A stretch of 50,123 nucleotides of DNA from Clostridiales bacterium (GTDB taxonomy: Bacteria > Bacillota > Clostridia > Lachnospirales > WRAX01), in contig JAISCI010000029.1 in NCBI GenBank assembly GCA_031265685.1, forward strand, positions 1 to 50,123, given 5' to 3'. The notes under the pieces were generated by a model, which worked only from the letters and a program-made list of their open reading frames with translations, was not told the origin of the DNA and made no database searches. Made by a program: the position numbers and the translations under genes. Below are positions 190 through 38,100 of the stretch, piece after piece; position 1 is the stretch's first letter, and every line of letters starts with the position of its first letter.

Positions 190-496
190 GAATTTTGCCA
201 GAACCCGCAAAATTCCTTTACTCGCGCAATGCGCGGCGTGCCGCTGGTACCGGCTGATAGCTGAATTTTGCGTGAACCAAGCAAAATTCATTAATCCATA
301 CATAGCAAAGGGAGTTCCTGATAATGCTAAAGCAAACCAACATGCGGACGTCGGCGTATAACCGGGTCAGCGAGGCGCTGACGGCCGAATTGAAGCGGAG
401 AAGAGAGAGGAGGTGCAGCCATGTTAATAAAAGAAAACATCTTGCGATTGGCGAACGGCGCAATCGATGAATTTTGCTTGAACCACGCAAAAATTC
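190..496. repeat. Three single copies of palindromic family-A unit (190-215, 263-289, 469-496)
   Basis: gaattttgc-cagaaccc-gcaaaattc; gaattttgc-gtgaaccaa-gcaaaattc; gaattttgc-ttgaaccac-gcaaaaattc. Confidence 0.9.
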
Positions 497-715
497 AGAG
501 CCGCGCAAGATGATTATTGATGTAAGCGTTCAGAAAGAATGTCAAACATCTCTATGTAAAATGACAACTTTTTTCTCTGTCAAACAAACGAAAAAACGTT
601 CCACATGTACGATAAATCATCGTACACATAAAACATTTTATATACAGCGTGTATCCAATTTTACATCATAAACAGAATCAAAATAACATCAACAGTAACT
701 CTTTATAATTGACTA

Positions 716-883
716 CTAGTAATTCCAAACTATCAACTCCTTATAATTTTCTCGATTTTCATATCGGCTTGTCAGACTGTTTGATCGCGAAACATGCTCA
801 ATATTAAACCCGCCGTACAACTCCCGAACAAACTCACAGTCATTATAAGACAGTATGAACCGTCCTTTAATCGCCGTTAACAA
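716..883 (-). pseudogene. C-terminal fragment of Dam-type (D12 class) DNA adenine methyltransferase
   Basis: LLTAIKGRFILSYNDCEFVRELY...YKELIVWNY resembles the KF(I/L)LSYND...ELLI.NY tail of Dam-family enzymes; no DPPY or FxG motif upstream. Confidence 0.65.
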
Positions 884-921
884 GCGGATGTCGATTGAGA
901 TAACAGACCGGAGGAATCGAA

Positions 922-1048
922 ATGAACCTTGACGAGAGCAAACTGGCGGGACGCTACCAAGTGACCGCCGCGCGCAAGGATAACGGCGAACGGGTGACGG
1001 GTTATTACTACTGCGGAGCGGCGGCAAACGGCATAATATGCCATTGCG
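922..1048 (+). pseudogene. Truncated phage YopX-like N-terminal fragment
   Basis: GGAGG RBS then ATG at 922; ARKDNGERVTGYY resembles the YopX motif GKRxDNGEWVYGY; runs into the right inverted arm. Confidence 0.35.
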
Positions 1049-1291
1049 TTGTTAACGGCGGTTGCAGATTTTGCGTGATGGAATTTCGCATCGCATTTTC
1101 GCGTGACAGAAGTTTGTATGGTTCACACAAAATCCATAGGCCGGTTCATACTGTCTTATAATGACTGTGAGTTTGTTAGGGAGATGTATGGTGAGTTTAA
1201 TATTGAGCATGTTTCGCGGTCAAACAGTCTGACAAGCCGATATGAAAATCGAGAAAATTATAGGGAGTTGATCGTTCGGAATTACCAATAG
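1049..1291 (+). pseudogene. Second Dam-type methyltransferase C-terminal fragment, interrupted by a 72-bp family-A composite
   Basis: LLTAV-[insert 1064-1135]-IGRFILSYNDCEFVREMY...ELIVRNYQ. Confidence 0.65.
1064..1135. repeat. Partial nested family-A composite
   Basis: gattttgc gtga tg gaatttcgc atc gcattttcgc gtga ca gaagtttgt atggttcac acaaaatcc; absent from the paralogous arm at 841-883. Confidence 0.8.
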
Positions 1292-12485: not shown

Positions 12486-12569
12486 GCTGATTCCTCCCAA
12501 TTTTGTAGTGTGACGCACGTATATGTATGCGGGGATCCGCGCCGTTATCCAGCGGAAAAACGGCGTCAC

Positions 12570-12708
12570 ACTAATCCCATTTTACAAAGACGGGTAAAAA
12601 TTTTTCAGTTCGCGCCAAGGAAGTTTGCTTGGTTCACGCAAACTTCAGAGCCGCGCGAACGCGCTGACGCTTGAAAAATTTTATCCATAAATCTAAATGG
12701 GATTAGCA

Positions 12709-14499: not shown

Positions 14500-14544
14500 C
14501 GCCAGGACTCCTTTCCGTTAGAGATAAATAACTTAAACCAAGGC

Positions 14545-14630
14545 AATTTCGCGTGAACCCGCGAAAATTCATTGGGGGCGCCGCCCCAAACCCCGCCTCT
14601 TTTCTTAAAAGAAAAGAAGCAAAAGAACTT
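14545..14630. repeat. Family-A unit (14545-14570) abutting a second REP-like hairpin cassette (14574-14630)
   Basis: aatttcgc-gtgaaccc-gcgaaaatt, then ggggcgccgcccc aaaccccg and cttttct-taaa-agaaaag hairpins. Confidence 0.7.
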
Positions 14631-14631: not shown

Positions 14632-15525
14632 TTACAGAAGAAATAGTTTGCCGCCTTTTATCGCCGCCCCGCGGACTTGGCAGCGCTCGTTCGGCGTGTC
14701 GTTGGGCGAATGGAACGCTATGTAAAGGCGCTCCGATTCATCCCTGAAGAACATCCCGTGCCCTCCGCCCGAGACGAGCGGTTCCGGCTGCTGCTCCCAC
14801 GGCTCGAACAGCCCGCCCGAGTCCGACCGCGCGTATCCGAGACAGTACCTGCCGTCCGCCCCGAACGACGACCACAGCATATACAGCGCGCCGTCCGGAC
14901 CGCGGAGCAGGTTCGGCCCGTCGGTGACATAACTGCCCGGGGCGCGGCCCGCCAACGGGTACGCCCACGGCGCCGAGCTGGCCGCGAACAGCGTCACGGG
15001 TTCGCCGGCGGCTTTCGTAAGGTCCGGCGACAGCCGCATTGCGCATACCGTCCCATCGCCGATCTGCTGCCACTCGTGACAGAACGCCATGTAACAAGTT
15101 TCATTTTCTATCCACAGCGAGCCGTCCAGGCACTCCCGTTCGGGGGGCGTGACCGGCTCGTCGGTGATCGGGACGAAAGGACCAAGCGGGTTTTCGGCCC
15201 GCAGTACGGCGGTGCCCCGCCGGCCCGCCTTCGGCTTGAAAGTAGCGAACATATAGTACGCGCCGTTTAGCGGGTATACCTCCGGCGCCCAAAAATTCTT
15301 CTCCGACCAGAAACCGGCGTCAGGGCGGAACACCGGGAACGGGCCGTCCAGTTCTTCCGTCCCGCCGCCCCGATACGCGTCGAACCCCGTACCGCCGCGC
15401 CATATATCCTTGTCGGTAGAACCGTACAGATAATACGCGCCGCCCTCCAGCAGGAAATACGGGTCGCGGATCTGAATATCTTCAAGACGAATTCCGCTTG
15501 ATTCACGCGAAATTACCTTTTTCAT
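14632..15525 (-). CDS. GH43 family glycoside hydrolase
   Basis: IRDP, FWAPEV, CLDGSL, CHEW, VTDGP, GGHGM five-bladed propeller motifs; contains a family-A unit at 15489-15515 in-frame near the N-terminus. Confidence 0.88.
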   Translation of the reverse strand: MKKVISRESSGIRLEDIQIRDPYFLLEGGAYYLYGSTDKDIWRGGTGFDAYRGGGTEELDGPFPVFRPDAGFWSEKNFWAPEVYPLNGAYYMFATFKPKAGRRGTAVLRAENPLGPFVPITDEPVTPPERECLDGSLWIENETCYMAFCHEWQQIGDGTVCAMRLSPDLTKAAGEPVTLFAASSAPWAYPLAGRAPGSYVTDGPNLLRGPDGALYMLWSSFGADGRYCLGYARSDSGGLFEPWEQQPEPLVSGGGHGMFFRDESERLYIAFHSPNDTPNERCQVRGAAIKGGKLFLL

Positions 15526-15679: not shown

Positions 15680-17716
15680 GTGATAGACCGCGAACAGCTT
15701 GTAACGCGCCACAACACGCGCTTTTCAGCGCTTCATAACGAGCCGCTCTCCGTCGGCAACGGTCGTTTCTGTTTCACCGCCGATTACACCGGACTGCAGA
15801 GCGAACCGGCGCTCTATCCGGGCTTCCCGCTAACGACTATGGCGGAATGGGGCTGGCACAGCTACCCCGACGCGCCGAAATCCGAGAAAGGCCTCAGGCT
15901 CACATCCTACGACACGTTCGGGCGCGGCGTCCGCTACGCCACCGAACACGAGGGGCAGGAAGAACTCTTCTACGCCCTGCGCCGGAACGCCCACAAGGTA
16001 TCGCTGGCGCGGCTCTCGTTCACATTGGACGCGTCCGGGCTTGCGGGGGGAACCGCCGTCGCGCGGACGCTGGATATGTACCGCGGTGTACTCTCGTCCG
16101 AATTCATTGCCGCCGGGGAGACCGTTAATGTGGAAACGTTCGTCGATCCCGACCGCGACGCCGTCTATGTGCGCGCCGAGTCGCCGCTTCTGGCGTCCGG
16201 GCGGCTTGGGATAGAGCTGTCGTTTCCGTACGGCTCGCATACGATCAGCGGAGCGGACTGGACGAAGCCCGATCGGCACACGACCGAATCCGTAGCCGGG
16301 GATGGAACGGCCCATGTAACGCGGCGTTTGGACGACTTGTCCTTCAGCGTCCGCGCGGACTCGCCGGGCGCCTTGATTACGGCGGGCGAACACTCGCTGT
16401 CGTTTGTATGGGACAAACCCGCCGTCTGGCTGTGCGTCCGTTTCGACATGAATTCCGCGTGGTTCGCGCGAAATTACCCTCGAGGCGCGGACGCCGCCGA
16501 GCCGTTCGGCGCGGCGAAACTCCGTCTGGCCGAATTCTGGCGCGGATACTGGCAGTCCGGCGGCGCGATAGACCTTTCGGAATCGTCCGACCCCCGCGCT
16601 TTCGAGCTGGAGCGCCGTATCGTTCTGTCGCAATACCTGACGGCCATTCAGAGCCGGGGCAGCCTGCCGCCCGCCGAGACAGGCCTGACGCTCAACAGCT
16701 GGTACGGCAAGTTCAACGTCGAGATGCACTGCTGGCACATGGCGCACTTCGCGCTCTGGGGCCGGGCCGGCGTTATCCGGCCAAGTCTCGCGTGGTATAA
16801 ATCCGCGCTGCCCGCCGCCAGAGAGATCGCGCGCTCACAGGGTTACGAGGGAGCGCGCTGGCCGAAGCTCTGCGACGCCAGCGGATACAACTCGCCGTCC
16901 GCGATAGCCGTCCTTCTCATTTGGCAGCAGCCGCACCCCATCATGCTGGCCGAGCTTATCCGGCGCGCCGGGGCGCCCCCCGAGTTTACGCGCGAATACG
17001 CCGAAGTGATCGCCGAGACCGCGAATTTCATGGTTTCTTTCGCCCGCTGGGACGGTTCGCGTTATGTGCTGGGGCCGCCGTACTACCCGTCGCAGGAGCG
17101 GTTCGACCCGCGTACAGTGCTGAACGCCGGGTTTGAGGTCGAATACTTCCGATGGGGTCTGCGGAAAGCCGCCGAGTGGACCGCCGAGACGGGCGGAACG
17201 CCCGATCCGCGCTGGATACAAGTCGCGGACAAACTCGCCGCGCCCGCCGTCGCCGACGGCGTGTTCCCAGCGCATGAGAACTGCCCCGAGACGTTCACGA
17301 CCGCCCCGTTCAATACCGACCACCCGTCGCAGACGGCCATGCTGGGGTTCCTGCCCGGGGACGGCGTCGATCGCGCCGTTATGAGCGCCACGCTCGACCG
17401 CGTTCTCTCCGATTGGGACATACCCTCGGTCTGGGGCTGGGACTTCCCGATGATGGCTATGACCGCGGCGCGGCTGGGCCGGCGGGAGGACGCCGTAAAT
17501 CTGCTGCTGATGGATTCGCCCAAGAATACCTGTATGCCCAGCGGCCACAACCGCCAAGGCGACAAGGCCGACCTGCCGCTGTATCTGCCCGGCAACGGAG
17601 CGTTGCTGCTGGCCGCCGCCATGATGGCTGCCGGCTGGGACGGAGCGGAAGGATACGCGCCCGGTTTTCCCGAAGGGTTCGTCACGCGGCACGAGGGGCT
17701 GTCGAGATATATCTGA
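15680..17716 (+). CDS. Six-hairpin (alpha/alpha)6 glycosidase, GH65/GH95-like, substrate unknown
   Basis: IDREQLVTRHN, LSVGNG.F.FTAD.TGLQ, ETGLT.NSWYGK, GARWPK, LIWQQPH, WGWDFP, YLPGNG; GGGAGG RBS. Confidence 0.75.
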   Translation: MIDREQLVTRHNTRFSALHNEPLSVGNGRFCFTADYTGLQSEPALYPGFPLTTMAEWGWHSYPDAPKSEKGLRLTSYDTFGRGVRYATEHEGQEELFYALRRNAHKVSLARLSFTLDASGLAGGTAVARTLDMYRGVLSSEFIAAGETVNVETFVDPDRDAVYVRAESPLLASGRLGIELSFPYGSHTISGADWTKPDRHTTESVAGDGTAHVTRRLDDLSFSVRADSPGALITAGEHSLSFVWDKPAVWLCVRFDMNSAWFARNYPRGADAAEPFGAAKLRLAEFWRGYWQSGGAIDLSESSDPRAFELERRIVLSQYLTAIQSRGSLPPAETGLTLNSWYGKFNVEMHCWHMAHFALWGRAGVIRPSLAWYKSALPAAREIARSQGYEGARWPKLCDASGYNSPSAIAVLLIWQQPHPIMLAELIRRAGAPPEFTREYAEVIAETANFMVSFARWDGSRYVLGPPYYPSQERFDPRTVLNAGFEVEYFRWGLRKAAEWTAETGGTPDPRWIQVADKLAAPAVADGVFPAHENCPETFTTAPFNTDHPSQTAMLGFLPGDGVDRAVMSATLDRVLSDWDIPSVWGWDFPMMAMTAARLGRREDAVNLLLMDSPKNTCMPSGHNRQGDKADLPLYLPGNGALLLAAAMMAAGWDGAEGYAPGFPEGFVTRHEGLSRYI

Positions 17717-20109: not shown

Positions 20110-20213
20110 GAATTTTGCTTGACAGAAGTTTGCATCGCATTTTCGCTTGGATGAATTTTGCGGCTTTACGCAAAATTCTGTCAGGCGAAAATACTTCGAT
20201 TCAAGCAAACTTC
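20110..20213. repeat. Nested family-A composite (outermost right arm lost)
   Basis: gaattttgc / gaagtttgc / gcattttcgc / gaattttgc..gcaaaattc / gcgaaaatac / gcaaacttc. Confidence 0.88.
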
Positions 20214-24987: not shown

Positions 24988-25014
24988 GAATTTTTCAAAA
25001 CTCACGAAAAATTC
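24988..25014. repeat. Degenerate family-A unit overlapping the stop of the upstream membrane-protein gene
   Basis: gaatttttc-aaaactcac-gaaaaattc; contains the TGA at 25004-25002. Confidence 0.6.
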
Positions 25015-26123: not shown

Positions 26124-26181
26124 ACTATATCCGCCCCATCCCGGCTCTTGGCCTTATCTTCCAGTTCCTGTGTTCCGGCGT

Positions 26182-27408
26182 CTAGTAAATCGGCCTCTTG
26201 TTAGTCAGCTTCACGACGCGCGCCCTGGCGTCCGCCTCGCCGCCGCCTCTAAGCGCTATCGCGATTATATCGGCCACCTCGGCCATGTCGGCTTCGTCGA
26301 AACCGCGCGTCGTCACGGCGGGCGTGCCGAGCCGGATGCCGCTGGTCACGAAAGGCGACTGCGGATCGAAAGGTATGGTGTTCTTGTTGCACGTCACGCC
26401 GACGGCGTCCAGCTTCTTTTCGGCTTCCTTGCCCGTCAGCCCGGCGCCGCGCAGATCGACGAGCATGAGGTGGTTGTCGGTGCCGCCGGACACTATGTCG
26501 AAGCCGTTGGCGGTAAGCGCACCGGCCAGCGCCTTGGCGTTCGCGACGACCCGCCCGATGTAGCGCTTGAACTCGTCCGTGGCGGCTTCTTTCAGCGCGA
26601 CCGCCTTCGCCGCGACGACATGCATAAGCGGCCCGCCCTGTATCCCCGGGAATACGGCCTTGTTTATCGCCGCCGCGTTTTCCTCCCCGCAGAGGATCAT
26701 TCCGCCGCGCGGACCGCGCAGCGTCTTGTGCGTCGTCGTTGTGGTATAGTCAGCGAGGGATATCGGGCTTGGGTGGTACCCGGTCGCGACAAGCCCGGCG
26801 ATATGGGCGATGTCCGCCATCAGCAGCGCGCCGACCTCCTTGGCGATATCGGAAAACTTCTCGAAGTCGATCACGCGCGAATAGGCGCTGGCCCCGGCGA
26901 CGATCAGCTTGGGGGCGGTACGTTTCGCGAGATCGCGCAGAGCGTCGTAGTCGATACGGCCAGAGCCGTCCACGCCGTATGGCACGATATTAAAATACTT
27001 TCCGCTCATATTGACGGGACTTCCGTGGCTAAGGTGCCCGCCGTCGGAGAGGTTCATGCCGAGAACGGTATCCCCCGGCTTTATCGCCGCGAAGAACACG
27101 GCCATATTCGCCTGCGCGCCGCTGTGCGGCTGAACGTTCGCGCTGCCGGCGCCGAAGAGGGCCTTGGCGCGGCTTATCGCCAGATTTTCGGCAATGTCCA
27201 CCTGTTCGCAGCCGCCGTAGTAACGCTTCGCCGGATACCCCTCGGCGTATTTGTTCGTGAGCGGACTGCCCATCGCCGCCATAACCGCCTTCGAGACGAA
27301 GTTCTCGCTGGCGATAAGCTCAATCCCCCGCCGCTCGCGGTCAAGCTCGCCGGTTATCGCCGCCGCCAGTTCCGGATCGGCGGACGCTATCTCGTTATAG
27401 TCATACAT
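26182..27408 (-). CDS. glyA: Serine hydroxymethyltransferase
   Basis: [41 protein letters not shown]; GGGAGGA RBS before MYDYNE. Confidence 0.97.
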
Positions 27409-27459
27409 CAGGTATTCCTCCCAGTAGCGCGAATCCCCCGAGGAACTCGCATCAGGCGC

Positions 27460-27488
27460 ATTATAGCATAGGTTGGGGTAATAATCAA
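27460..27488 (-). promoter_or_regulatory. SigmaA promoter of glyA
   Basis: TTGATT-17-TATAAT with extended TG. Confidence 0.6.
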
Positions 27489-27526
27489 GGGGCAACGAAT
27501 CGCGGGAGAGGGATAAATGACAGATG

Positions 27527-27561
27527 GAATTTTGCGTGACGGAATTTCGCTTGCGAAATTC
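27527..27561. repeat. Degenerate two-level family-A composite
   Basis: gaattttgc gtga cg gaatttcgc tt gcgaaattc tg. Confidence 0.7.
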
Positions 27562-27625
27562 TGTTGCAATATGAAGTGGTTTTTTCGCCCGACGTTTATA
27601 CTCCGCGAGCCGAAGCGAGCGGCAG

Positions 27626-27654
27626 TTGACTTTTCCCCAAGTATGTGTTATCCT
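27626..27654 (+). promoter_or_regulatory. SigmaA promoter of hppA
   Basis: TTGACT-17-TATCCT with extended TG. Confidence 0.55.
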
Positions 27655-27723
27655 GCACGTGGGTTTTTTAGTTTTCCGGTTTTCGTTATCCAGTTTCTAA
27701 ATATTTAGATTGGAGGATTTGCT

Positions 27724-29886
27724 ATGTCATTGTTAGACGCGATGTTTCTGCTGGCGCCGGTCGGCTCAATCCTGGCGCTTGTTTTCGCGGCCTTTCAGGC
27801 AAAGGGGGTACTCAAGTTCCCCGAGGGTTCGGACGTCATGAAGAGCATCTCGCAGAAGATCCGGATCGGCGCGAACGCGTATCTCAAGCGCCAATACAAG
27901 ACTGTCGGCCTGTTCTTCGTCGGGATGTTCGTCGTGCTCGGCGTTATGGCGTTTTTTAACATGCTGACGCCGTTCGTGCCGTTCGCATTCATCACGGGCG
28001 GCTTCTTCAGCGGACTTTCGGGCTTCGTCGGCATGAAAATAGCCACCGCCGCCAACGCCCGCACCGCCAACGCCTCGAGCGAGAGCCTTAACAAAGGCCT
28101 GCGCGTGGCTTTCTCCAGCGGGACGGTCATGGGGTTCACGGTCGTCGGGCTTGGCCTGCTCGATCTCTCCATCTGGTTCTTCCTGCTAAGGTACGCGTTC
28201 GCGCCGTATTTCGTGGACGTACACAACGTTGACGAGCTGGTGTCGTTTATCTCGCAGGCCATGCTGACGTTCGGCATGGGCGCCAGCAGCATGGCCCTGT
28301 TCGCGCGCGTCGGCGGCGGCATATTCACTAAAGCGGCGGACGTCGGCGCGGATCTTGTCGGCAAGGTTGAGGCCGGCATCCCCGAGGACGACCCCCGCAA
28401 CCCCGCCGTCATCGCCGATAATGTCGGCGACAATGTCGGCGACGTGGCCGGCATGGGCGCGGATCTCTACGAATCTTACGTCGGATCAATTGTCGCCACG
28501 ATCGCGCTCGCCGTGTCGGCGTTCAAGGATCCCGGCGATCCCACGTCGCTGGGCGCGATAAGGGGCGCGTCGGTACCTATGATCATGGCGGCCGTCGGAA
28601 CCCTCGCGTCCATCGTCGGAACATTCTTCGTCCGTACGGGCGAGAAGGCCAGCCAGCGCGCGCTGCTCTCCGCGCTGCGTAAGGGTACTTACATTTCGAG
28701 CGGGATAATCGTCGTCGCGGCGTTCCCGATCATATGGTTCGCGCTCGGACCCGAGAATATAGGCGTTTACGGCGCGGTTCTCTCCGGGCTTATCGCGGGC
28801 GTGCTGGTCGGCTTCTTTACCGAGTACTACACGTCGGACACGTATAAGCCGACGCGCCGCCTGGCCGATTCCAGCCTGACGGGACCGGCGACTCTCATCA
28901 TCAGCGGGCTGTCGCTGGGCATGGTCTCCACGTTCCTCCCGGTCGTCATAGTCGGCATATCCGTCCTCGTCAGCTACTACGCCTCAGGCGGGGCGGCCTC
29001 GTTCGCCCAGGGTCTGTACGGCGTCGGCATATCCGCCGTCGGAATGCTCTCGACGCTGGGGATAACGCTGGCCACGGACGCCTATGGACCCGTGGCGGAT
29101 AACGCCGGAGGTATCGCCGAAATGAGCGGCCTGCCTGAATCCGTGCGCGAGCGCACCGACGCGCTGGATTCGCTCGGCAATACGACCGCCGCGACCGGCA
29201 AGGGATTCGCGATAGGCAGCGCGGCGCTGACCGCCCTCGCCCTCATAGTCGCCTATACCGACGAGATCGCCGTCAAGGCGCCGGACTTCATTTTCCATCT
29301 CGACCTTACGTATCCGCCGACGCTGATCGGCCTGTTCATCGGCGCGATGCTCCCGTTCCTGTTCTCGTCGATGACGATGCAGGCCGTGGGGCGCGCGGCG
29401 CAAGGGATCGTCGTGGAAGTGCGCAGGCAATTCAAGGAAATCAAGGGGCTTCTTGAGGGCAAACCGGGCGTGGAGGCCGACTACGCCAAATGTGTGGACA
29501 TCTGCACCGGCTCCGCTCAGCGCGAGATGGTCGGTCCGGCGCTTACGGGCATAGCCGCGCCGATAGTCGTCGGACTTATCCTCGGCGTCAACGGCGTGGT
29601 CGGTATGCTGGCCGGGGCGACCGCCACGGGATTCGTGCTGGCCGTCATGATGTCGAACGCGGGCGGCGCGTGGGACAACGCGAAGAAGTTCATCGAGGCG
29701 GGCAAGCACGGCGGCAAAGGCTCTGATGCGCACAAGGCGGCGGTCGTCGGCGACACGGTCGGCGATCCGTTCAAGGATACCTCCGGCCCGTCGATCAACA
29801 TACTGATCAAACTGCTAAGCATGGTGTCGATAGTGTTCGCCGGTCTGACGCTGACATTCAATTTGGTGGATACGCTGTTCAAATAA
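27724..29886 (+). CDS. hppA: Membrane-bound pyrophosphatase, K+-dependent type (probably Na+-translocating)
   Basis: DVGADLVGKVE, EDDPRNP, DNVGDNVGD, GDTVGDPFKD; GNTTAA (Ala) signature of K+-dependent enzymes. Confidence 0.95.
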   Translation: MSLLDAMFLLAPVGSILALVFAAFQAKGVLKFPEGSDVMKSISQKIRIGANAYLKRQYKTVGLFFVGMFVVLGVMAFFNMLTPFVPFAFITGGFFSGLSGFVGMKIATAANARTANASSESLNKGLRVAFSSGTVMGFTVVGLGLLDLSIWFFLLRYAFAPYFVDVHNVDELVSFISQAMLTFGMGASSMALFARVGGGIFTKAADVGADLVGKVEAGIPEDDPRNPAVIADNVGDNVGDVAGMGADLYESYVGSIVATIALAVSAFKDPGDPTSLGAIRGASVPMIMAAVGTLASIVGTFFVRTGEKASQRALLSALRKGTYISSGIIVVAAFPIIWFALGPENIGVYGAVLSGLIAGVLVGFFTEYYTSDTYKPTRRLADSSLTGPATLIISGLSLGMVSTFLPVVIVGISVLVSYYASGGAASFAQGLYGVGISAVGMLSTLGITLATDAYGPVADNAGGIAEMSGLPESVRERTDALDSLGNTTAATGKGFAIGSAALTALALIVAYTDEIAVKAPDFIFHLDLTYPPTLIGLFIGAMLPFLFSSMTMQAVGRAAQGIVVEVRRQFKEIKGLLEGKPGVEADYAKCVDICTGSAQREMVGPALTGIAAPIVVGLILGVNGVVGMLAGATATGFVLAVMMSNAGGAWDNAKKFIEAGKHGGKGSDAHKAAVVGDTVGDPFKDTSGPSINILIKLLSMVSIVFAGLTLTFNLVDTLFK

Positions 29887-29887
29887 G

Positions 29888-29928
29888 CGCCGAAAAGCCC
29901 CGCGCCTAGGGCGCGGGGCTTTTCGGCG
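29888..29928 (+). terminator. Terminator after hppA
   Basis: cgccgaaaagccccgcgc / gcgcggggcttttcggcg perfect stem. Confidence 0.8.
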
Positions 29929-30017
29929 GCGGCGTGAAATAGGCGCGGATATCGAATCATCAAATCGCGCGGGAAACCGGACACGACCGCGGAACGATAT
30001 CACGGATATGAAGCGAA

Positions 30018-30213
30018 TACCGCACATCACCTCAACTCTCAGACCACGCAAAAACGCACAAAGCCACAGCAAAAGCCCTCGGAACACGGTATAATAAAAG
30101 CGGCGAAAACGATTGCGGAGGCGACGATCATGCCCAAGCAGGGCAAAAACCGGAACCGACTGACGCTGATCCCAATATGTCCGGGCGATTATATTGAATC
30201 TAACAGCGTATGA
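30018..30213 (+). mobile_element. IS1182-family left end and truncated transposase stub
   Basis: MPKQGKNRNRLTLIPICPGDYIESNSV* (30130-30213); DNA aligns with 49908-50123. Confidence 0.7.
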
Positions 30214-30297
30214 AGTATAGTGTTTGAGAATGCGTCATAGACTTAACGGGTCTCCCCTTATCGCAGCTTTTGACGTGATCAAACGAAGACTTACTTG

Positions 30298-30696
30298 ATT
30301 AGGGCGCAGGAGGAAAAATTGCGAAGCTATGCGGTAGCCAGGGATTGGGCGGTCTACAAAATTTACGCGGACGAGGGAGTCAGCGCGAAGGACATTGATG
30401 GCCGCCCGGCGGTCAAGTAGTTGATTGCGGACATTACGGAGGGCAATGTCAACAATGTGCTGGTCTATAAAATCAATCGTTTGACGCGCTCGGTGAAAAA
30501 TCTGATTGAGTTGGTTGACTTGTTCAATCAGCACCGTTGCGCCTTTAACTCGTTAAACGAGTCGATTGACACCACCACCGCCACCGGGCGCATGTTCCTA
30601 AAAATCGTGGGGATTTTCGCCGAGTTTGAGCGGGAGAACTTGGCGGAGCGGGTACGGCTGGGACTGGAGCGGAAGGTGCGCGAGGGCTATACCTAA
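30298..30696 (+). pseudogene. Serine recombinase (resolvase catalytic domain) fragment
   Basis: IRAQEEKLR..IYADEGVSA..RPAVK* then VLVYKINRLTRS..IDTTTATGR..FAEFERE; in-frame TAG at 30418-30420, no YxRVS nucleophile, premature end. Confidence 0.85.
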
Positions 30697-30802
30697 AGCC
30701 TTTCACTCATCAAGTAGGGTTTTCCGTCTTTTTTTATCCCGCCGAGTATATCGGTCGCTTTTAATCTAAAAACTCTGTGGAAAAAGGTACTTGATTACCC
30801 GG

Positions 30803-30920
30803 TTGACAATATCGCAAGGCGTGATATAGTCTATGTCAGAGTTTTTAGGCATTAAAAACCAACGTCCTTACCGTCTAAAGTTCGGGGGCTTTTTTTGCTT
30901 TTTAGGCACTAAAAAAGCCC
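30803..30920 (+). promoter_or_regulatory. SigmaA-like promoter followed by two palindromic boxes and a terminator-like hairpin
   Basis: TTGACA-16-TATAGT (extended TG); TTTTTAGGCAYTAAAAA at 30842-30858 and 30899-30915. Confidence 0.55.
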
Positions 30921-31130
30921 TTTTGTTGGTGGCAGATGTACAAAAACATACATTTTGGCAAATGATTTCTCACCTGCCAGTCGCAAAAAGGCTTTCAATA
31001 ACAATATGTTATAGTATGTTTTTGTTTTTTACAATCCCTATTTGCCATGGTTTCGTCTGATTTGTCCGGCAAAACGCCGATAAATTGCGAAGTCGGCACG
31101 AATTGCCCGGCTGATCCGCCGTAAATCTTT

Positions 31131-31604
31131 TTAGTCGTGCTGATCCTTTCGCAAATATTTGTCCACAAAGTCCGAAAAATCGCGCGCCGCGCCCTCGTCC
31201 GCGTAATCGTCCCAAAGCCAGACGGCGTTACCCTGCGCTTCCTGAACGCACACGCCCTCGCGCACAATCGTCCGGTACACGCGCGTCTCCAGTTTCGCGG
31301 CCCAAGCCATCATCAGGCTTATGTACAGCCGCTCGTTGTTCGTCGCCCTGTTTCGCCCCAGAAGAATGCCGTCAATCCGCAGCTTTGGGTTAAGCTGGCG
31401 AATTTCCGGCAGACCTTCGATCAGGTTGACACAGCCTTGAACGTTCGCGCTGTCGGGATGAAGCGTGATGATCATATCGTCGGCGCAGTTCGCGGCTTGC
31501 AGCATCTGCATCGTTCCGACCAGCGGCTGGTTGTCGATGACGATGTAGGAATATTCAGACTTTATCGGCTCCAGCGCCTTGTCAAGCGCCTTGACGCCGT
31601 TCAT
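31131..31604 (-). pseudogene. ParA/Soj family ATPase, C-terminal fragment
   Basis: YSYIVIDNQP Walker B region, LNPKLRIDGIL, TIVREGVCVQEAQ; Walker A missing. Confidence 0.75.
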
Positions 31605-31833
31605 CGACGTGCTGGAACTGTTCTACCAGATGGCCGCTCTGTCCAAAACATTTTCCAAAAAACGTCAGGGAAAAAGTGAGCCATATATCCGGTGTAGGCT
31701 ACCCTCGGATAGGCAAATCATAATAAGGACATCTCTCATAGAAAATAAAGCCAACTGTATTTTGAGCCATACCCAACTGGGCATATGCATTATAACATAG
31801 ATGAAATGCCGTGACAGGACATTTAAGGAAAAA

Positions 31834-32145
31834 TTATCCTCTCGCCACTTGGGGTTGGTCGTTCCAATTCTTGAAATTTTTGTTCGGCAAGTGTAGCCGC
31901 GTGTTTGGGTGTTTTGCCCGGATTTTCTCTATAAATTCGCGGCCAGCCTCGTCGTTGTCCACGCACAAAACCGGCTCGGCTCCCACTCCGGCGACGCCGA
32001 GCGTATGCTCCAGCACGTTTTCTTTCAACCCCGCCAGCGATACCAAAAGACATCCGGTCAGAGACTTGCCAACGCCGCGCTCAATCTCAATAAAAGATAA
32101 CAAATCAATTCCGCTCTCAAAATAGAACGCATAGGCGGTCTTTTC
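31834..32145 (-). pseudogene. Toprim-domain (conjugative-element primase-like) fragment
   Basis: FESGIDLLSF..VSLAGLK..LCVDNDEAG..KNWND. Confidence 0.7.
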
Positions 32146-32399
32146 ACCGAAGTGAAACTATTTCCAGACTTCCGCGGATCAACGCTATATGCCCTGTCGA
32201 TTATTATAGCGCTTGTCGTGATGAATTTCAAGTGATATTGCTGCTGATATTCTTACCGACGCGCGTTACTTTAGGGTTATGATGAACATTTTCGCCTGTC
32301 TTTCTTGCGCATCCCTATTAATTTATGCTATAATTAAATAACTAATGATTAATTAAAAGGAAGGCGGTATATATGGGCTAAAAGTGAAAAGTAAAAGGT

Positions 32400-32520
32400 A
32401 ATTTTCGCCTGATGGAATTTCGCTTGGTTCGAAGCATTTTTGCTTGGACGAAGTTTGCTTGAACCACGCAAACTTCTGTCACGCAAAAATGCGATGCGAA
32501 ATTCGTACCCGCGAAAATTC
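32400..32520. repeat. Complete four-level nested family-A composite
   Basis: Arm pairs aattttcgc/gcgaaaatt, gaatttcgc/gcgaaattc, gcatttttgc/gcaaaaatgc, gaagtttgc/gcaaacttc. Confidence 0.92.
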
Positions 32521-32559
32521 ATGCCGAAAAGGCAATCCAAGAAAGAAGGTTAACTGTTA

Positions 32560-35500
32560 ATGAAAAAACGTATTCCGCGAGCGGTGTCGGCGATTGCTCT
32601 GGCGGTATTGATGTGCCTGCCGGGCGGTCTGACCGCCCAAGCGGGGATCGGAGACGTTGACGGCGCGTGGAGCGCGGGGCTTGTGCTTGACCTGCCGTTC
32701 GACGGGAACCTGACGGACGCGACGGGCAAACACACCGTAACCGCCGCCAACTACGACGGCGCGACGACGGTAACTTACGTAAACGGCGCGGACGGCGGCG
32801 CGAACCGCGCGGTGCGGCTGTCCGGCAATACTTATCTGAACATTGGTTCTGAGGCCGACTTGAACCCGGAGAGCATGACGCTGTCGTTCTGGATTAACCC
32901 GAGCGCGGCAATCACCGGCGAGCAGATTGTCATGTGGAACAAGAACGCCTACAATTCCGCGGGCTGGTACGTAACGCTGCTGTCCGACACCGTACCGATC
33001 AAGCTTTCGGTCGGTACGGAGCCGTTCGAGATAAGCGTGCACGGCGCGCGTGCCGATTTCTTCCCGGTCGGCAAATGGACGCACATCGCCGTCACCTTTG
33101 ACGGCACCGCAAAAGAGACCCGGATATTCCGCAACGGCGTACCGCAGACTCTGAGCGTAGACCAGGGAAGCGCCGCGAGCGCCGCGATTTCTGACAGCGG
33201 CGTCCACAAATCCATCGGATGGAACGGGCCTAACCACCATAACGGCGGATGGCTCGCGAATTCGGCGCTCGACGGTCTGAAGCTGTTCGACGGCGCGGTG
33301 ACGGAACAGGAAGTTGTGGAACTGTACAACGAAGCCGGGACAAAACTCGCGGCGACGGCGGACTTCACGTCGGACGTTATTCTGGATCTGAAATTTGACG
33401 GCGACACGAACGACGCGTCATCCGGCGCAAATAACTATAGCGTCGCCTCGGGAACCGCCGGATACACGACCGGAGTGGACGGCGCGGCGAACCACGCGTT
33501 CCTATTCAACGGATCGACTTGGCTGGAAACCCCGGCCTCGGGCAGCGAAGACTTGAACCCCGAATCGTTTACGGTCTCCTTTTGGGTGAAACCGACCGGG
33601 ACGATGAGCGGAGAGCAGATCTTTTTCTGGAACAAGAACCAGTATAACCAAGCCGGCTGGTATATCGGATCCAATACGAACGATAAGCCGCTTGTCGTAT
33701 CGGTCGGCGTGGGTACGGGCGGATCGGGCAGCGGGCAGCCGCTGGAATTTAATATTGAAACATCGCGCGCGGCGTTTTTCCCGGCGGATACTTGGACGCA
33801 TATCGCCGTGTCGTATGACGGCGCCGCCAAGGAATGCAAGATATATCGCGACGGGATAATGCAGATTGCCGCCGACGGCGCGACAACGGGCAACGCGACG
33901 GCGGCGGGGGCGGTCGCGGACAGCGGCGTCAAGAAGATGATCGGGCGCAACGGACCATCGCACAACAGCGGCGGAAACCTGAGCGTCGCGCTTGACAACG
34001 CGCTGATGTGGAAGAGGGTAGTCCCGCAGAACGCGCTCGCGGATCTGTACGGACTCCACGCGGAGCTGGACGCGCAGGCTCTCGTCAATAAGGATACCGT
34101 CTCCCTCCCGGCGCAGATATCGTCGAGTATAACGCTGCCCGTTATCGGTCAGCAGGGTTCCCGCGTACGGTGGATCAGCTCGTCCCTCCCCGGAATTCTT
34201 TCCGCGGATGGAACCGTCGTCCGACCGGAGGAAACGACTGAAGTGACGCTAACCGCGGCGTTCACCTACGACGGGAAGACGGCGGTAAAAACGTTCACCG
34301 TGACGGTATTGGGGCGGGACGAATCGGACGGCACGGTAGTGCTCGAGGAAATGATGGAAAATATCGGCACGGACAGCGTGGAGCTGCTCGACGCGTACCT
34401 CTTGAACAACGAGATGAACGACGTGTCGTACCTGCTTTCACTTGACCCGCAAAGGTTCCTGTACCACTTCTACAAGACGGCCGGCGTAACGCAGCCGACG
34501 GGCAACACGGCTTACGACACACTGAACGGCGAGGCGACCTGGGAGCGCACGAACGACCTAAACTTCCGCGGACACATGTTCGGGCACTGGCTGGGCGCTT
34601 GCGCGCTGGCGTACCGCTCGGCGGACACGACGACCGATCAAAAGTCTCGGCTGCTGACGAAGATTCAAACCGCGCTCGCTGGGCTCGCGGCCTGCCAGAC
34701 CGCCTACGGAAACACGTACAGCGGCCGCGGCGGCTACATCGCGCCGTTCACCGAGAAGCGTCTCTATGAGCTGGACGGCGTTTCGGGCGGCGGCTACCAA
34801 ACCGCTTACGACGGAACCGTCTATGTGCCTTACTATAATCTTCACAAAGTTGTGGAAGGCCTGCTGCAAGTTTACTCGAGCTTCCGCGACATCGGAACGA
34901 CTACGGCGGCGACTGAGTCGGCGAGGGACGACGCTTTGGAGATAGTTTCCAAATTCGGCGACTATATGTACGACTGCCGCGTCAATAACGCGTCCTGGTC
35001 GGACTCGAGGACGCAAGGCACCGAATACGGCGGCTTCAACGAGGCTTTTTACGAGCTTTACGCCATAACCAAAAGCGCTAAGCATCTGCGCGTCGCCGAG
35101 GCTTTCGACGAAACGAGCAACTTCCAGCGCATGGTCAACGGCGAGGATTACCTGACGGACGTACACGCCAACACGACTATCCCGAAATACATCGGCGCCG
35201 TCAAGCGGTACGAGGTGTTCACGGAGAACGAAACGCTCTACAACACGCTGACCGCCGCCCAGCGGGAACAGCTTACGTCACTGTATCTGACGGCGGCTGA
35301 GAATTTCTGGGACATTGTAGTCCGCGATCACAGCTACATCACCGGCGACAACTCGACGGGCGAGCATTTCCGCTCTATCGTCGGCGGCAACGGGCTTAAG
35401 TACGACGCGGTGACGCGCAACCCGCCCGAAACCTGCGAAACCTGCAACGCCTACAACATGCTGAAGCTGACGCGCGAGCTGTACAGGATCACGGGCGACA

Positions 35501-37338
35501 AGAAATACTCCGACTTCTACGAGCGGACGTTCATAAACACGATCGTTTCGTCGATGAACCCGGAAACGGGCGGCATGACGTACTTCAACCCGATGTACTC
35601 GGGCTACTACAAACTGACCAACGCGAACCGCTTCTGGTGCTGCACGGGCACGGGCGTCGAGAACCACGTCAAGTACGGCGACTCGATCTACTTCAAGTCC
35701 GGCGGGGACGTATTTGTCAACATGTACTACTCGTCGATTCTGACGCTGACGGAGCTGAACCTCAAGCTGACCCAGGAGACAAGCATCCCCGTTTCCGACT
35801 CGGCGAGGTTCACCGTAGCCACGGCGTCCGGTTCGGGCGAGGTAGCCGCCGGCACTAACCTGCGCTTCCGCCGGCCGGATTGGATCGCGGGTACGCCGAC
35901 GGTTAAGGTAAACGGGGATGAAACGGCGGCGGTGATCGAGGGCGGATACATCGTCGTTAAAGGCGCCGCCGCGGGCGATGTAATCGAGCTGACCATCCCG
36001 GCGGGAACCGAGGCGTGGAGCGCCGCGGACGACGCGAGTTTCGTCGCTTTCCGCTACGGGCCGCTCGTGCTTTCGGCCACGCTCAGCGCCGTCGCGGACG
36101 TTTCGGCGGGCGACGGTACGGGCATATTGGTTCTCCACTCGTCCGACCCAGCGTCGGAACCCAACACGATCAACATCACCAACGGTCAGACGGTCGCGGA
36201 GTGGAAAGCCGACATAAACAACAACCTAGTACGCGCGTCCAACGCGACAAAGACGATAACCGGCAAGACGGGGACGATCAGCGTACCGCAGATCCGATTC
36301 CAGCTTACGGGTACAAGTCAGGACAGCCTTGTCTACATACCGCACTACATGCAGTACGCCAACCGTTACGGATTGTATATGAACGTCAAGACCGGCCCGG
36401 CAGCCCCGGCGCCCGAGCGGGAACCGATCCTGCGCTATACGTTCGACGCGGGCACGATAACCGGCACAACCGTCGAAGACGTAACCGGCAACGGCAACGA
36501 CGGCGCGCTGATGAGCGGAGCGGCGGCGTCCGCGTCCAGCCCGTTGGGAAATACCATGGGCAGCTCGCTTTCGCTGGACGGCGGCGCTCAATATGTCGAT
36601 ATCACGACCAACCCGCTTGACGGGCTTGTAAACTTCACGATATTGGCGTGGGTCAAGCCGGACGCGCTGGACAGCTGGGCGAGGGTGTTCGACTTCGGCC
36701 CGTCAGGCGAGAAGCCCGGCCTGTTCTTCACGATCAACAGGGGGAGTAATTTAGGGCGGCTGGCGTTTGAAACCGCCTCGTCAAACACGGCGGTGAACCT
36801 TACAAGCGCGCTTTCAACCTCCGCGTGGGCGCACCTTGCCTGCGTTATCGACGGGACGAGCGCCCGGCTCTACATCAACGGCGTCCTGGCGGGCGAGAAC
36901 GCCGCGTTTAACTATGATTCGGCGCTGGCGGGTCAATTTTCCGACAACTACCTCGGCAGGTCGCAATACGGCGGCGACGAGTACTACGACGGCGGTATCG
37001 ACGATTTCCAAATCTACAACTACGCGCTGTCCGGCGACGAGGTCGCGGACATATACCGAGGCGAGGAACCGCGGCGCGACCTTGAGTTCTCGTCGACGCT
37101 CAGCCTGACCGCGCAATGGCAGGCGGAAGTCCACAATCCCGGATACTTCGACAGCGAAAGCGTGACGGTCATCGTCGCGTACTACAATGCGGGCGGACGT
37201 CTTATCTACGTCCTTACAAAATCCGGGACGGTCGCGGGGTTGGGTTCGCTGACCCTCAACGAGTACGCGCCGCAGGGGGCGGCGTCCGCTAAGGCGTTCT
37301 TCTGGGACACGGCGTCATATGTTCCGCTGACGGCGTGA
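32560..37338 (+). CDS. Secreted GH127/GH146-type beta-L-arabinofuranosidase with three LamG-like domains, an Ig-like domain and a conserved C-terminal domain
   Basis: Signal peptide; FRGHMFGHWL, PYYNLHK, EYGGFNE, HANTTIPK, ETCNAYNMLKL, FWCCTGTGVE; LamG-type W.HIAV.FDG motifs. Confidence 0.9.
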   Translation: MKKRIPRAVSAIALAVLMCLPGGLTAQAGIGDVDGAWSAGLVLDLPFDGNLTDATGKHTVTAANYDGATTVTYVNGADGGANRAVRLSGNTYLNIGSEADLNPESMTLSFWINPSAAITGEQIVMWNKNAYNSAGWYVTLLSDTVPIKLSVGTEPFEISVHGARADFFPVGKWTHIAVTFDGTAKETRIFRNGVPQTLSVDQGSAASAAISDSGVHKSIGWNGPNHHNGGWLANSALDGLKLFDGAVTEQEVVELYNEAGTKLAATADFTSDVILDLKFDGDTNDASSGANNYSVASGTAGYTTGVDGAANHAFLFNGSTWLETPASGSEDLNPESFTVSFWVKPTGTMSGEQIFFWNKNQYNQAGWYIGSNTNDKPLVVSVGVGTGGSGSGQPLEFNIETSRAAFFPADTWTHIAVSYDGAAKECKIYRDGIMQIAADGATTGNATAAGAVADSGVKKMIGRNGPSHNSGGNLSVALDNALMWKRVVPQNALADLYGLHAELDAQALVNKDTVSLPAQISSSITLPVIGQQGSRVRWISSSLPGILSADGTVVRPEETTEVTLTAAFTYDGKTAVKTFTVTVLGRDESDGTVVLEEMMENIGTDSVELLDAYLLNNEMNDVSYLLSLDPQRFLYHFYKTAGVTQPTGNTAYDTLNGEATWERTNDLNFRGHMFGHWLGACALAYRSADTTTDQKSRLLTKIQTALAGLAACQTAYGNTYSGRGGYIAPFTEKRLYELDGVSGGGYQTAYDGTVYVPYYNLHKVVEGLLQVYSSFRDIGTTTAATESARDDALEIVSKFGDYMYDCRVNNASWSDSRTQGTEYGGFNEAFYELYAITKSAKHLRVAEAFDETSNFQRMVNGEDYLTDVHANTTIPKYIGAVKRYEVFTENETLYNTLTAAQREQLTSLYLTAAENFWDIVVRDHSYITGDNSTGEHFRSIVGGNGLKYDAVTRNPPETCETCNAYNMLKLTRELYRITGDKKYSDFYERTFINTIVSSMNPETGGMTYFNPMYSGYYKLTNANRFWCCTGTGVENHVKYGDSIYFKSGGDVFVNMYYSSILTLTELNLKLTQETSIPVSDSARFTVATASGSGEVAAGTNLRFRRPDWIAGTPTVKVNGDETAAVIEGGYIVVKGAAAGDVIELTIPAGTEAWSAADDASFVAFRYGPLVLSATLSAVADVSAGDGTGILVLHSSDPASEPNTINITNGQTVAEWKADINNNLVRASNATKTITGKTGTISVPQIRFQLTGTSQDSLVYIPHYMQYANRYGLYMNVKTGPAAPAPEREPILRYTFDAGTITGTTVEDVTGNGNDGALMSGAAASASSPLGNTMGSSLSLDGGAQYVDITTNPLDGLVNFTILAWVKPDALDSWARVFDFGPSGEKPGLFFTINRGSNLGRLAFETASSNTAVNLTSALSTSAWAHLACVIDGTSARLYINGVLAGENAAFNYDSALAGQFSDNYLGRSQYGGDEYYDGGIDDFQIYNYALSGDEVADIYRGEEPRRDLEFSSTLSLTAQWQAEVHNPGYFDSESVTVIVAYYNAGGRLIYVLTKSGTVAGLGSLTLNEYAPQGAASAKAFFWDTASYVPLTA

Positions 37339-37344
37339 GCGGGG

Positions 37345-37367
37345 AGGGGTTGAAAACTTCAACCCCT
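37345..37367 (+). terminator. Hairpin after the GH127/146 gene
   Basis: aggggttgaa-aac-ttcaacccct. Confidence 0.6.
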
Positions 37368-37539
37368 TGCGCTGTTTCAACAAAACATAATAGCCGGCTA
37401 TGTAAACGACGCTAAAGAAAGGTTTGACAAGCTTCCCATAGCGTGCGGCAGCAGGATTGTGTTTCTACTCGAAAAATCACTCACCGCAGCAATATAATTG
37501 AAATCGCCCGCCGCATTTTCAAAGTTCGCTTAAATTCGC

Positions 37540-38100
37540 GTTTTGTTGATGTCGGTATATTCGTAGGCGTCAGCGGCGTCCAGCCCTTGGACGTCCGACA
37601 GTACGTAGTGCCGGTCAGGATTTTGCCCCAATCCCCAAAATTCGTTTCCTATCCGCACTGATTGATTTCCTCACGAATCAGCGTGACTTCCAGCATTTCA
37701 AGCACCGGCCAGCCCTTCACTGAATTTTGCGGGTCCAAGCAAAATTCACCTCGCTAAAGTCCGCGACAGCGCTAATTCCGTCTGCGTACGCACACTGTGC
37801 CTGTCGGACGCCGATACTCCGTTGATCGTAATCGGCGCGGAGATATTGGCGCCGCCTGTCACTGTTTGATACTGCCATTGGTTATTTATAGCGCTTGCCG
37901 CCGCTCCCGCCACTGAATTTTGCGTGGTTCAAGCAAAATTCATCAGGCGTTGTAACGCGCCGCCTTGCCTACTGAATTTTGCGTGGCCCTTGCAAAATTC
38001 ATCGCGGCGGCGCGGATGTCGCCCAGCCGCTCCCTTATCTCGCCAAGGAATTTCGCTTGATTCACGCGAAATTCTGAGAAGCCCTCGGCGTCCATCCGCG
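37540..38100 (-). pseudogene. Possible phage tail relic (tape-measure tail / distal tail-like), riddled with family-A units
   Basis: Minus-strand pieces TVTGGANISAPITINGV..ELALSRTL and MLEVTL..YVLSDVQGLD loosely resemble siphophage tail genes; weak. Confidence 0.3.
37722..38074. repeat. Four family-A units (37722-37747, 37915-37941, 37974-38000, 38048-38074)
   Basis: Each is gaattt(t/c)gc-N8/9-gc(a/g)aaattc. Confidence 0.9.

Follow-up and report, generated by a model that had tools for sequence, protein, structure and literature searches.

The window analysed here is the entire contig C87 (50,123 nucleotides) of G000, a draft metagenome-assembled genome (MAG) from termite gut based on short reads (2.22 Mb in 130 contigs, 58.5% G+C, 90.96% complete); positions without a contig name refer to this window and those with one to other contigs of the same genome. 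Its genes are Clostridia-like and fit plant-polysaccharide breakdown (SpoIID, a CspB-type protease, GH43, GH127 and glucuronyl esterase). The public runs containing the window were only termite-gut metagenomes (three listed, all of one study, one of them possibly the source of this DNA), and no RNA data set was among the runs listed. Scattered between and within these genes are short palindromes, which a preliminary description had regarded as a self-targeting micro-element of a single family, A, present at about 17 loci. Here, we describe them as members of a superfamily of hairpin units that occurs in hundreds of copies in this genome and, on the basis of the evidence given below, consider it fairly probable that they represent a non-autonomous mobile element, similar to repetitive extragenic palindromic (REP) sequences, which targets hairpin loops and thus itself.

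The basic unit of the superfamily has a 9-bp AT-rich stem (GAATTTTGC and variants) closed by a G-C pair and a loop of 9 or 8 nt. The 9-nt loop reads xTG-NNN-CAy and, when folded, has a G.A or T.C mismatch followed by two additional base pairs and a triloop (GTT, AAC, ATT or AAT), and units with this loop have no stable orientation; the 8-nt loop reads GGNTTCAG on one strand and CTGAANCC on the other. The strict pattern GAAWTTYGC-N7-10-GCRAAWTTC was found at 7 window sites, and at 14 when one substitution per arm was allowed. With up to three mismatches, GAATTTTGC-N9-GCAAAATTC had 8 matches in the window compared with 0.01 expected, and none of 100 dinucleotide shuffles of the window reached this number (the largest count was 1). 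Single units were predicted to fold as single-stranded DNA (ssDNA) with -6.2 to -8.0 kcal/mol (z -4.0 to -5.4). Screening of the whole genome, with one mismatch allowed and a family-like loop required, identified 491 hairpins. When the 17 positions initially listed were read, each proved to hold a hairpin of the superfamily, but they mix at least three arm families and belong to a far larger set; two further window sites (16450-16476 and 37618-37643) had been missed. Perfect hairpins of this geometry (9-bp stem, 8-9-nt loop) numbered 615 in the genome, and 368 of them fell in eight arm families: GAATTTTGC (166), GAAGTTTGC (58), GAATTTGCC (34), AATTTTCGC (33), CATTATCGT (27), GAATTTCGC (21), GATTCGCGC (16) and CATTTTCGC (13). 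Below, family A has arms GAAxTTxGC and a 5' flanking triplet ACA, ATG or GCA, family B has arms CATTxTCGy and flanks CGAAG..CGATG, families C and D have arms GAATTTGCC and GxTyCGCGC, respectively, and family E has arms AATTTTCGC and flanks AAGGT..CAT.

Pairing of the arms was assessed at 193 sites of the genome anchored on the loop and the closing GC only, without assuming any pairing. Each of the seven outer stem positions was Watson-Crick paired in 87-98% of these sites, and all seven were paired in 142. Several pair types occurred per position (TA 136, GC 42 and CG 4 at position 4; TA 125 and CG 56 at position 7; AT 155 and TA 30 at position 3), which agrees with the earlier statement that the arms covary. 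A partner arm was present within 250 nt of 275 of the 341 GAATTTTGC arms. This pairing and the conserved loop led us to reject a 9-mer of the DNA-uptake-sequence type, and a CRISPR-like array was rejected on reading the sequence, the units being nested and no spacers interspersed.

Within the window, the first units are of family A: a clean one at 190..215 with perfect arms GAATTTTGC/GCAAAATTC and the 8-nt loop CAGAACCC (-6.2 kcal/mol as ssDNA), another clean one at 263..289 with the 9-nt loop GTGAACCAA (9 bp, a G.A mismatch, 2 bp and a triloop) and one at 469..496 with a 1-nt bulge in its right arm (GCAAAAATTC). At 1064..1135 lies a truncated nest with left arms A, A, B and A, of which one loop and the outer right arm are left; a paralog at C4:1350-1500 retains the full nest. 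A D-type hairpin (GTTCGCGC...GCGCGAAC) at 12606..12660 forms the centre of a miniature inverted-repeat transposable element (MITE; about 12562-12716) and carries in its loop a clean A unit (GAAGTTTGC, 12620-12646); the empty paralog at C4:11070-11195 is shorter by 29 nt. E-like units were found at 14544..14569 (CAATTTCGC GTGAACCC GCGAAAATT, flanks AAGG..CAT, intergenic) and 15489..15515 (GAATTCCGC TTGATTCAC GCGAAATTA, at the 5' edge of the GH43 open reading frame (ORF) 14632-15534 on the minus strand), followed by two tandem intergenic GATTTTCGC units with 8-nt loops, 32 nt apart (15598-15623 and 15630-15655). Hence the sites listed before as 14545, 15489, 15598 and 15630 belong to sister families with AATTTTCGC/GATTTTCGC arms and mostly 8-nt loops, and not strictly to A. 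A decayed E-like unit lies at 16450..16476 (plus strand) within the intact ORF 15680-17716. The four-level nest at 20110..20213 consists of A (20110, right arm lost) around A (20125-20213), B (20138-20193) and A with an 8-nt loop (20153-20178), and folds with -29.4 kcal/mol (z -7.1). Further on there are a variant palindrome with a non-consensus loop where galK meets the adjacent ORF (24988..25014; GAATTTTTC AAAACTCAC GAAAAATTC) and a decayed nest at 27527..27561, in which an outer A left arm is followed by GTGACG, an inner GAATTTCGC hairpin with a 2-nt loop and a degenerate outer right arm. Upstream of the GH127 gene, a second four-level nest (32400..32519; -29.9 kcal/mol, z -5.5) comprises E (32400-32519), A (32415-32504), B (32435-32491) and A (32450-32476), and a paralog on C109 is without the inner 62 nt. 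The remaining sites are a decayed palindrome at 37618..37643 (GGATTTTGC CCCAATCC CCAAAATTC) and four clean A units, at 37722..37747 (8-nt loop GGGTCCAA), 37915..37941 (loop GTGGTTCAA, flanks ACT..ATC), 37974..38000 (diverged loop GTGGCCCTT, flanks ACT..ATC) and 38048..38074 (arms GAATTTCGC/GCGAAATTC, loop TTGATTCAC, flanks AAG..TGA).

Nesting is the dominant higher-order form of these units. Counted outward from the 491 innermost hairpins, nest depth was 1 for 335, 2 for 104, 3 for 43, 4 for 7 and 5 for 2, so that 156 had a depth of at least 2. Arrangements such as A[B[A]], E[A[B[A]]] (as at 32400-32519) and D[A[B[A[B]]]] (C83:6373-6523) are typical. The preliminary description had noted copies inside copies, inside other hairpin families and inside intact ORFs, and all three situations were found again.

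Paralogous filled and empty sites were then compared, and junctions could be obtained in 59 of 63 candidate pairs. The A unit with a 9-nt loop adds 30 nt to A or B loops (eight pairs), that with an 8-nt loop adds 29 nt to B loops (six pairs), and A units in D loops add 29 nt (four pairs) or 28 nt (one pair). B units in A loops add 33 nt (three pairs) or 34 nt (one pair), and the E unit adds 35 nt. Composites also differ as blocks, A[B] by 62 to 65 nt in 11 pairs and D[A] by 48 to 50 nt in nine. Accordingly, the net gain of 30 bp claimed before, which would preserve the reading frame, is exact for A units with a 9-nt loop but not general, single units ranging from +28 to +35. Clean A junctions read xTG[ACA, ATG or GCA + hairpin]NNN-CAy, so that each insertion consists of the hairpin and a single polar triplet and immediately follows the TG of the host loop. 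Among all 58 A-in-loop nests of fitting geometry, the triplet ACA, ATG or GCA was on exactly one side, beside the host TG, in 53; the triplet on the opposite side was GTT, ATC or GTC and never AAC. This one-sided pattern indicates that the integration point is specific for strand as well as position (TG^RTY). The entry point of B units precedes that of A units by one base (xT^G), and 8-nt-loop units keep the triplet at the GG side of their loop. Two unrelated sites, C113:168 and C122:17342, contain near-identical copies of the 35-nt E unit (AAGGT..CAT), in both cases directly 5' of AGCG and without duplication. No direct target duplication was observed at any filled/empty junction. A 3-bp target-site duplication (27 + 3 = 30) was considered and rejected, the flanking triplets (ACA..GTT, ATG..GTT) not being direct repeats.

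Such filled and empty sites are supplied by other short, MITE-like repeats, in which the genome is rich. One MITE (inverted ends AGAACCTGTATTCA..GAATACAGGTTCT, flanked by TTA/TAA; C46:18693-19010, C5:13023-13330, C34:5042-5305, C4:61626-61822 and others) exists in forms of about 175, 240 and 310 bp, which document successive acquisitions, first of an A hairpin and later of a nest within that hairpin's loop: some paralogs are without the hairpin, that on C34 has a simple A hairpin, and those on C46, C5, C110 and other contigs have a three-level nest in the same loop. The MITE-like element at window 12562-12716 has terminal inverted repeats ACTAATCCCATT..AATGGGATTAG, a GC-rich central D hairpin and paralogs such as C4:11070-11195 and C15:3730-3890; its copies differ in whether the D loop contains an A unit and in the deletion of 20 nt between CGCGC repeats. 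At window 1-120 and 37440-37560 and at or near many contig ends (for example, C46:88584-88701, C115, C66, C48, C111, C47 and C15) there is a palindromic repeat (..AATATAATTGAAATCGGCCACCCC..GGGGGTGGCCGATTTTTCAATTATATTGG) about 110-150 bp long, which is therefore a probable cause of assembly breaks. One copy of it (C1:9427) has an E-type hairpin, which 16 paralogs are without.

Several copies are read as part of proteins. In AroB (3-dehydroquinate synthase), a D[A] nest encodes 24-26 additional residues situated between conserved blocks; these residues are missing in three aligned homologs (40-49% identity), and the matches to relatives split at this place. Within the 678-aa ORF 15680-17716, the peptide encoded by the unit at 16450-16476, MNSAWFARNY, falls exactly where two homologs (43-44% identity) have a 7+4-residue gap. 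These alignments give the direction of change independently of the paralog comparisons, the insertion being the derived state. Further in-gene copies lie in the interdomain linker of MutL and in a C5-methylase gene, whereas apparent intragenic copies in AlaRS, Tex and a DinG-like helicase are actually upstream of the true start. Copies were also found in decayed mobile genes (IS110 and phage fragments). In addition, hisF (His_biosynth) and hisIE (PRA-CH, PRA-PH) form one 530-aa ORF at C19:12682-14274 that passes through hairpin-derived codons (aa 293-302 onward), and this may be a gene fusion made by the repeats.

At the level of the genome, 181 of the 491 copies were in ORFs although these cover 83% of the sequence; it should be noted that genes were called crudely (longest non-overlapping ORFs of at least 100 aa), which makes all coding and intergenic figures approximate. 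Intergenic density was 0.94 per kb between tandem, 0.76 between convergent and 0.41 between divergent genes. Loop orientation relative to the nearest gene was random for 9-nt loops (108/215) and weakly biased for 8-nt loops (131/226), the nearest-gene position was downstream in 190 cases versus upstream in 152, and no T-run was seen after the stem. Together, location and orientation fit selfish DNA that is tolerated mainly outside genes and promoters and not an RNA signal. A transcription-factor operator or terminator was rejected on account of the 491 copies, their nesting, the copies in ORFs, the absence of orientation bias and the missing T-run. More generally, the hairpins could be cis-elements of the host, that is, sites for nucleoid, topoisomerase or recombination proteins or RNA stem-loops, whose abundance is due to selection as has been proposed for REPs. 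The intergenic enrichment, the lowest density in divergent regions and the conservation of loop and stable fold speak for such a role; we nevertheless regard it as improbable given the lack of an orientation bias, the nearest-gene positions (190 downstream, 152 upstream), the nests up to five deep and the copies inside proteins and dead genes.

The superfamily proved to be restricted to one lineage. G000 has 193 instances of the arm-agnostic motif of loop and closing GC (GCKTGRWYCAMGC), compared with 0-1 per genome in the 19 other genomes of its taxonomic family and at most nine (mostly 0-3) per genome in 400 others of the order, and the exact A hairpin has 166 copies in G000 versus none in 40 relatives. 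As the hairpin family was not found in any other sampled genome of this taxonomic family and order, no conserved host function needs the hairpins. When 185,579 species representatives were scanned, at least two further contigs with family loops (L004 and L032) were among the matches listed, whereas 56 of these 58 matches were unrelated palindromes, with different loops or with arms in common only by chance. L004 is a 5.4-kb phage-like contig of an Oscillospiraceae MAG, in which two units interrupt a PAPS-reductase gene; L032 is an 8.6-kb contig binned as Treponema sp. that has a phage portal fragment and other repeats of G000 at 96-98% identity. Because each is the sole hairpin-bearing contig of its bin, both are probably stray, mis-binned contigs of the same lineage or of its phages or prophages. 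No match to the family pattern was found in IMG/VR and none to the exact pattern in a metagenome contig collection; 118 metagenome loci obtained with a looser pattern were dismissed as chance matches (106 without and 12 with one hairpin in the hairpin test). In a Clostridiales bacterium, UBA6388 (L003, L015, L038 and L050), a GAATTTTGCCCC..GGGGCAAAATTC palindrome has only four copies, with the outer arms GAATTTTGC/GCAAAATTC around a different, fully paired core (CCCC-ATT-GGGG). The window site 37618 resembles a decayed copy of this form, and the arm word may predate the family loop.

That the repeats are an artefact of assembly, library preparation or binning, for example of chimeric fold-back reads, is suggested by the fragmentation of this short-read MAG and by the Logan contigs of the source run, which break at hairpins. 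Logan contigs on window 19001-39000 included none that bridges a hairpin site in a related low-coverage strain, and Logan joints at hairpins (for example, 37911->38079) had a depth above the genome level, probably from paralogs. Such an origin is nevertheless highly implausible: contigs of two further MAG records with different isolate names (L004 and L032) contain the same sequences, units are read in frame inside conserved genes, the copies show graded decay and family structure, and the source contigs were reproduced with 0 differences.

We thus favour a REP-like mobile hairpin that targets hairpin loops. The data demonstrate the structure of the units, their number, the differences between filled and empty sites with their exact junctions, the polarity, the restriction to one lineage and the derived state of in-frame insertions. 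According to this proposal, the superfamily consists of miniature non-coding units of 26-37 nt, each with a stem, a loop and a few polar flanking bases, which would integrate at a fixed position and on a fixed strand without target-site duplication. An A unit would enter the loop of a resident hairpin between TG and the RTY triloop (xTG^RTY-CAy), and a B unit one base earlier. Since every unit has the same loop, the family would be its own preferred target and could build nests up to five deep; nested composites would then act as larger single units, with the outer arms as ends and the loop as cargo. Units would also land in ordinary DNA, including genes, where frame-keeping copies would persist. 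Movement in trans by an enzyme that acts on folded ssDNA, with a logic like that of IS200/IS605 and the REP-associated tyrosine transposases (RAYTs), is something we infer and do not observe, because the genome has no detectable Y1 HUH or TnpB protein and the units have no GTAG tag; the ssDNA nature of the intermediate and the mobiliser itself are likewise putative.

A number of results weigh against this proposal, first of all the search for a mobiliser. Six-frame searches of the genome gave no match to PF01797 (Y1 HUH, including RAYT), which was found as a control in 6 of 14 reference genomes, and none to PF07282 (TnpB). Thus, the analogy with RAYT and IS200 drawn in the preliminary description did not hold for this draft genome, whereas its remark that the window contains no candidate mobiliser was confirmed by Pfam searches of 30 window ORFs. 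Eighteen ORFs are flanked by hairpins on both sides and none is nuclease- or recombinase-like, the proteins being housekeeping (GlmS-, IscS-, Tgt- and Ddl-like, as named by reading the translations) or small and of no informative family. IS110 DEDD transposases gave eight matches at six loci, with one frameshifted copy and the rest partial or decayed, and hairpins adjoin or lie inside them at four of the six loci. These copies more likely are victims of the hairpins, or insertion sequences that target hairpins, than drivers, and a role as mobiliser is not supported. At C122:24311-25644, a frameshift near 24920 divides an IS110-family transposase gene; a long structured region lies upstream of it, and the vicinity is free of hairpins. 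Nine matches to tyrosine recombinases look like phage integrases, some at contig ends, and none is tied to hairpins; the single reverse transcriptase (C53) is a truncated group II intron maturase unrelated to them. No assembled repeat of at least 1 kb, able to carry a transposase, was found (the longest was about 470 bp). The mobiliser gene could be outside the 91%-complete bin, single-copy or plasmid-borne, or it could have been lost.

Other points concern the comparisons themselves. The direction of change was assumed in the paralog comparisons, which come from one short-read MAG and include neither an orthologous empty site of a close strain nor any population polymorphism. Where the target is not a hairpin, the junction bases are variable, and there is no one target motif common to every event. 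Moreover, the constant junction triplets could go back to a small number of founder composites, multiplied as whole units or by gene conversion, and gene conversion between composites could explain some of the uniformity of the junctions. Differences of 20 nt in the D hairpin, present or absent, are bounded by 5-6-nt CGCGC direct repeats and look like slippage deletions and not insertions. Nests may be truncated or unequal, sometimes with hybrid arms (window 1064; three left versus two right arms at C10:34470), and there are symmetric arrays with a 15-nt period on each side (C45:11006) and 33-nt tandem arrays of C units (C9); hence recombination, slippage and palindrome correction do reshape the arrays.

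The same features are what an origin without any dedicated transposase would draw on, in which template switching or slippage at hairpin-stalled forks, quasi-palindrome correction and gene conversion or short-homology recombination multiply the hairpins and a filled loop converts an empty one. No mobiliser was detected, and near-perfect complementarity with compensatory changes would be expected from palindrome correction without any need for selection. Hairpins are also found at the junctions of unrelated gene fragments: at C46:87000-88100, a serine-recombinase fragment is joined via an A hairpin (C46:87143) to an IS110 transposase fragment, followed by a segment homologous to window 37760-37915, so that hairpins mark rearrangement junctions in decayed mobile genes. 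Such processes could not, however, template the conserved loop and the polar flanking triplet locally. They do not account for near-identical 35-nt E and 30-nt A units in unrelated, non-homologous targets that include unique coding sequence, for arm families that nest at family-specific positions (A after xTG, B after xT) or for the strand-specific junction in 53 of 58 nests, and we consider this explanation rather unlikely.

Among known systems, the hairpin element postulated here is closest in appearance to REPs and REPINs with their RAYTs: short palindromes of 20-40 nt, hundreds of copies, mostly intergenic and lineage-specific, with several families per genome, an asymmetric end, no target duplication and sometimes an intragenic position (features of REPs given in PMC3733652; see also PMC3116915 and PMC3337134). 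The present repeats likewise are short palindromes of high copy number (491) and mainly extragenic (310/491 outside the crude ORFs). However, the REP tag is absent: within 8 nt of the stem foot, GTAG/CTAC occurs at 15 and CGTC/GACG at 52 of the 491 hairpins, and the polar flank ACA/ATG/GCA is present instead. Together with the finding of no Rfam match at the gathering score in the 50-kb window, this indicates that no described family is matched. Unlike REPs, the units also are usually nested in loops instead of being arranged as head-to-head doublets or as arrays like bacterial interspersed mosaic elements, and no RAYT gene was found in the draft genome. The host differs as well, being Clostridia-like, whereas the words 'Firmicutes' and 'Clostridi' are absent from the available text of PMC3733652, its supplementary REPtron lists aside. 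Classical DDE MITEs are a poor match, since the arms are readable as 9-bp terminal inverted repeats but the flanking triplets are not direct repeats.

Elements of the IS200/IS605 family recognize hairpins and, without duplication, integrate with a fixed polarity beside a specific short sequence, and their single-strand mechanism would find ssDNA hairpin loops accessible. They have two different subterminal hairpins, with guide and cleavage tetranucleotides some distance away. The present units resemble the MITEs and palindrome-associated transposable elements (PATEs) of this family in that they are polar, lack a target duplication and follow xTG in 53 of 58 nests or, for E, lie 5' of AGCG; they differ in that the whole unit is one hairpin plus 2-5 bases and that neither TnpA nor TnpB was detected. 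Family IS110 prefers REPs or attC hairpins as targets, and G000 has IS110 DEDD genes beside hairpins, as described above, but a double-stranded circle of 30 bp is an implausible IS110 donor. Insertion into palindromic repeats is known for these bridge-RNA recombinases (PMC11208160).

Palindromic repeats without a dedicated transposase have precedents. CGTC-type REPs and Rickettsia palindromic elements (RPEs) are among them and, according to passages of PMC3733652, occur in frame in protein genes, including repair genes. The in-frame copies in AroB, the MutL linker, the C5 methylase and ORF 15680-17716 are similar in this respect. RPEs are about 100-150 bp and CGTC-tagged, whereas the present units have 26-37 nt and are untagged. 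Yeast mitochondrial GC42 clusters are likewise without a known transposase (passages of PMC4478555); they differ in their organellar location, their richness in GC, their AG target duplication or footprint and a proposed RNA-mediated route, and regular loop nesting is not among the features given in those passages. Full-text literature searches found no description of regular loop-in-loop nested micro-hairpins in bacteria.

REPs and related small palindromes belong to the most poorly understood mobile DNAs of bacteria, and a mobiliser is still not known for CGTC-type REPs or for organellar hairpin elements. The genome studied here offers an exceptionally clear natural experiment, with hundreds of copies, several arm families, family-specific junctions and exact filled/empty pairs in the same genome, and recursion into loops narrows the integration site down to one phosphodiester bond within a defined DNA structure. 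In a lineage in which the expected RAYT was not found, the question of what moves tagless REP-like hairpins, an enzyme or replication and recombination, becomes testable. Only tentatively, and as something we would think doubtful at present, these could be the smallest autonomous-looking insertion units of bacteria (a 26-27-nt hairpin plus 3 bases), moved strand-specifically into TG^RTY by an enzyme that is neither Y1 HUH nor TnpB and reads folded hairpins. If so, the element would be its own target and its loop the cargo site, a recursive 'Russian-doll' transposition, and the enzyme would represent a compact integrase of single-stranded DNA that is guided by structure. The peptides of 10-26 residues written into conserved enzymes (AroB, MutL) and the apparent joining of hisF and hisIE illustrate routes to protein novelty. 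Practically, such repeats break short-read assemblies and drag short contigs into wrong bins.

Some further repeats were noted in the course of the analysis. An AT-rich repeat of 370-400 bp with 7-9 copies lies at window 517-883, and inverted repeats of about 160 bp (722-880 and 1137-1290) surround a small Cys-rich ORF that ends in a hairpin nest. Tandem C-type units (GAATTTGCC, 8-nt loop) follow each other with a 33-nt period (a 26-nt hairpin plus ACCCAAG) at C9:9146-9210 and C9:11980-12045. Finally, C93:3031-3138 contains a further family of nested palindromes with arms GGAAAAACGC/GCGTTTTTCC, four deep and spaced by about 13-15 nt.

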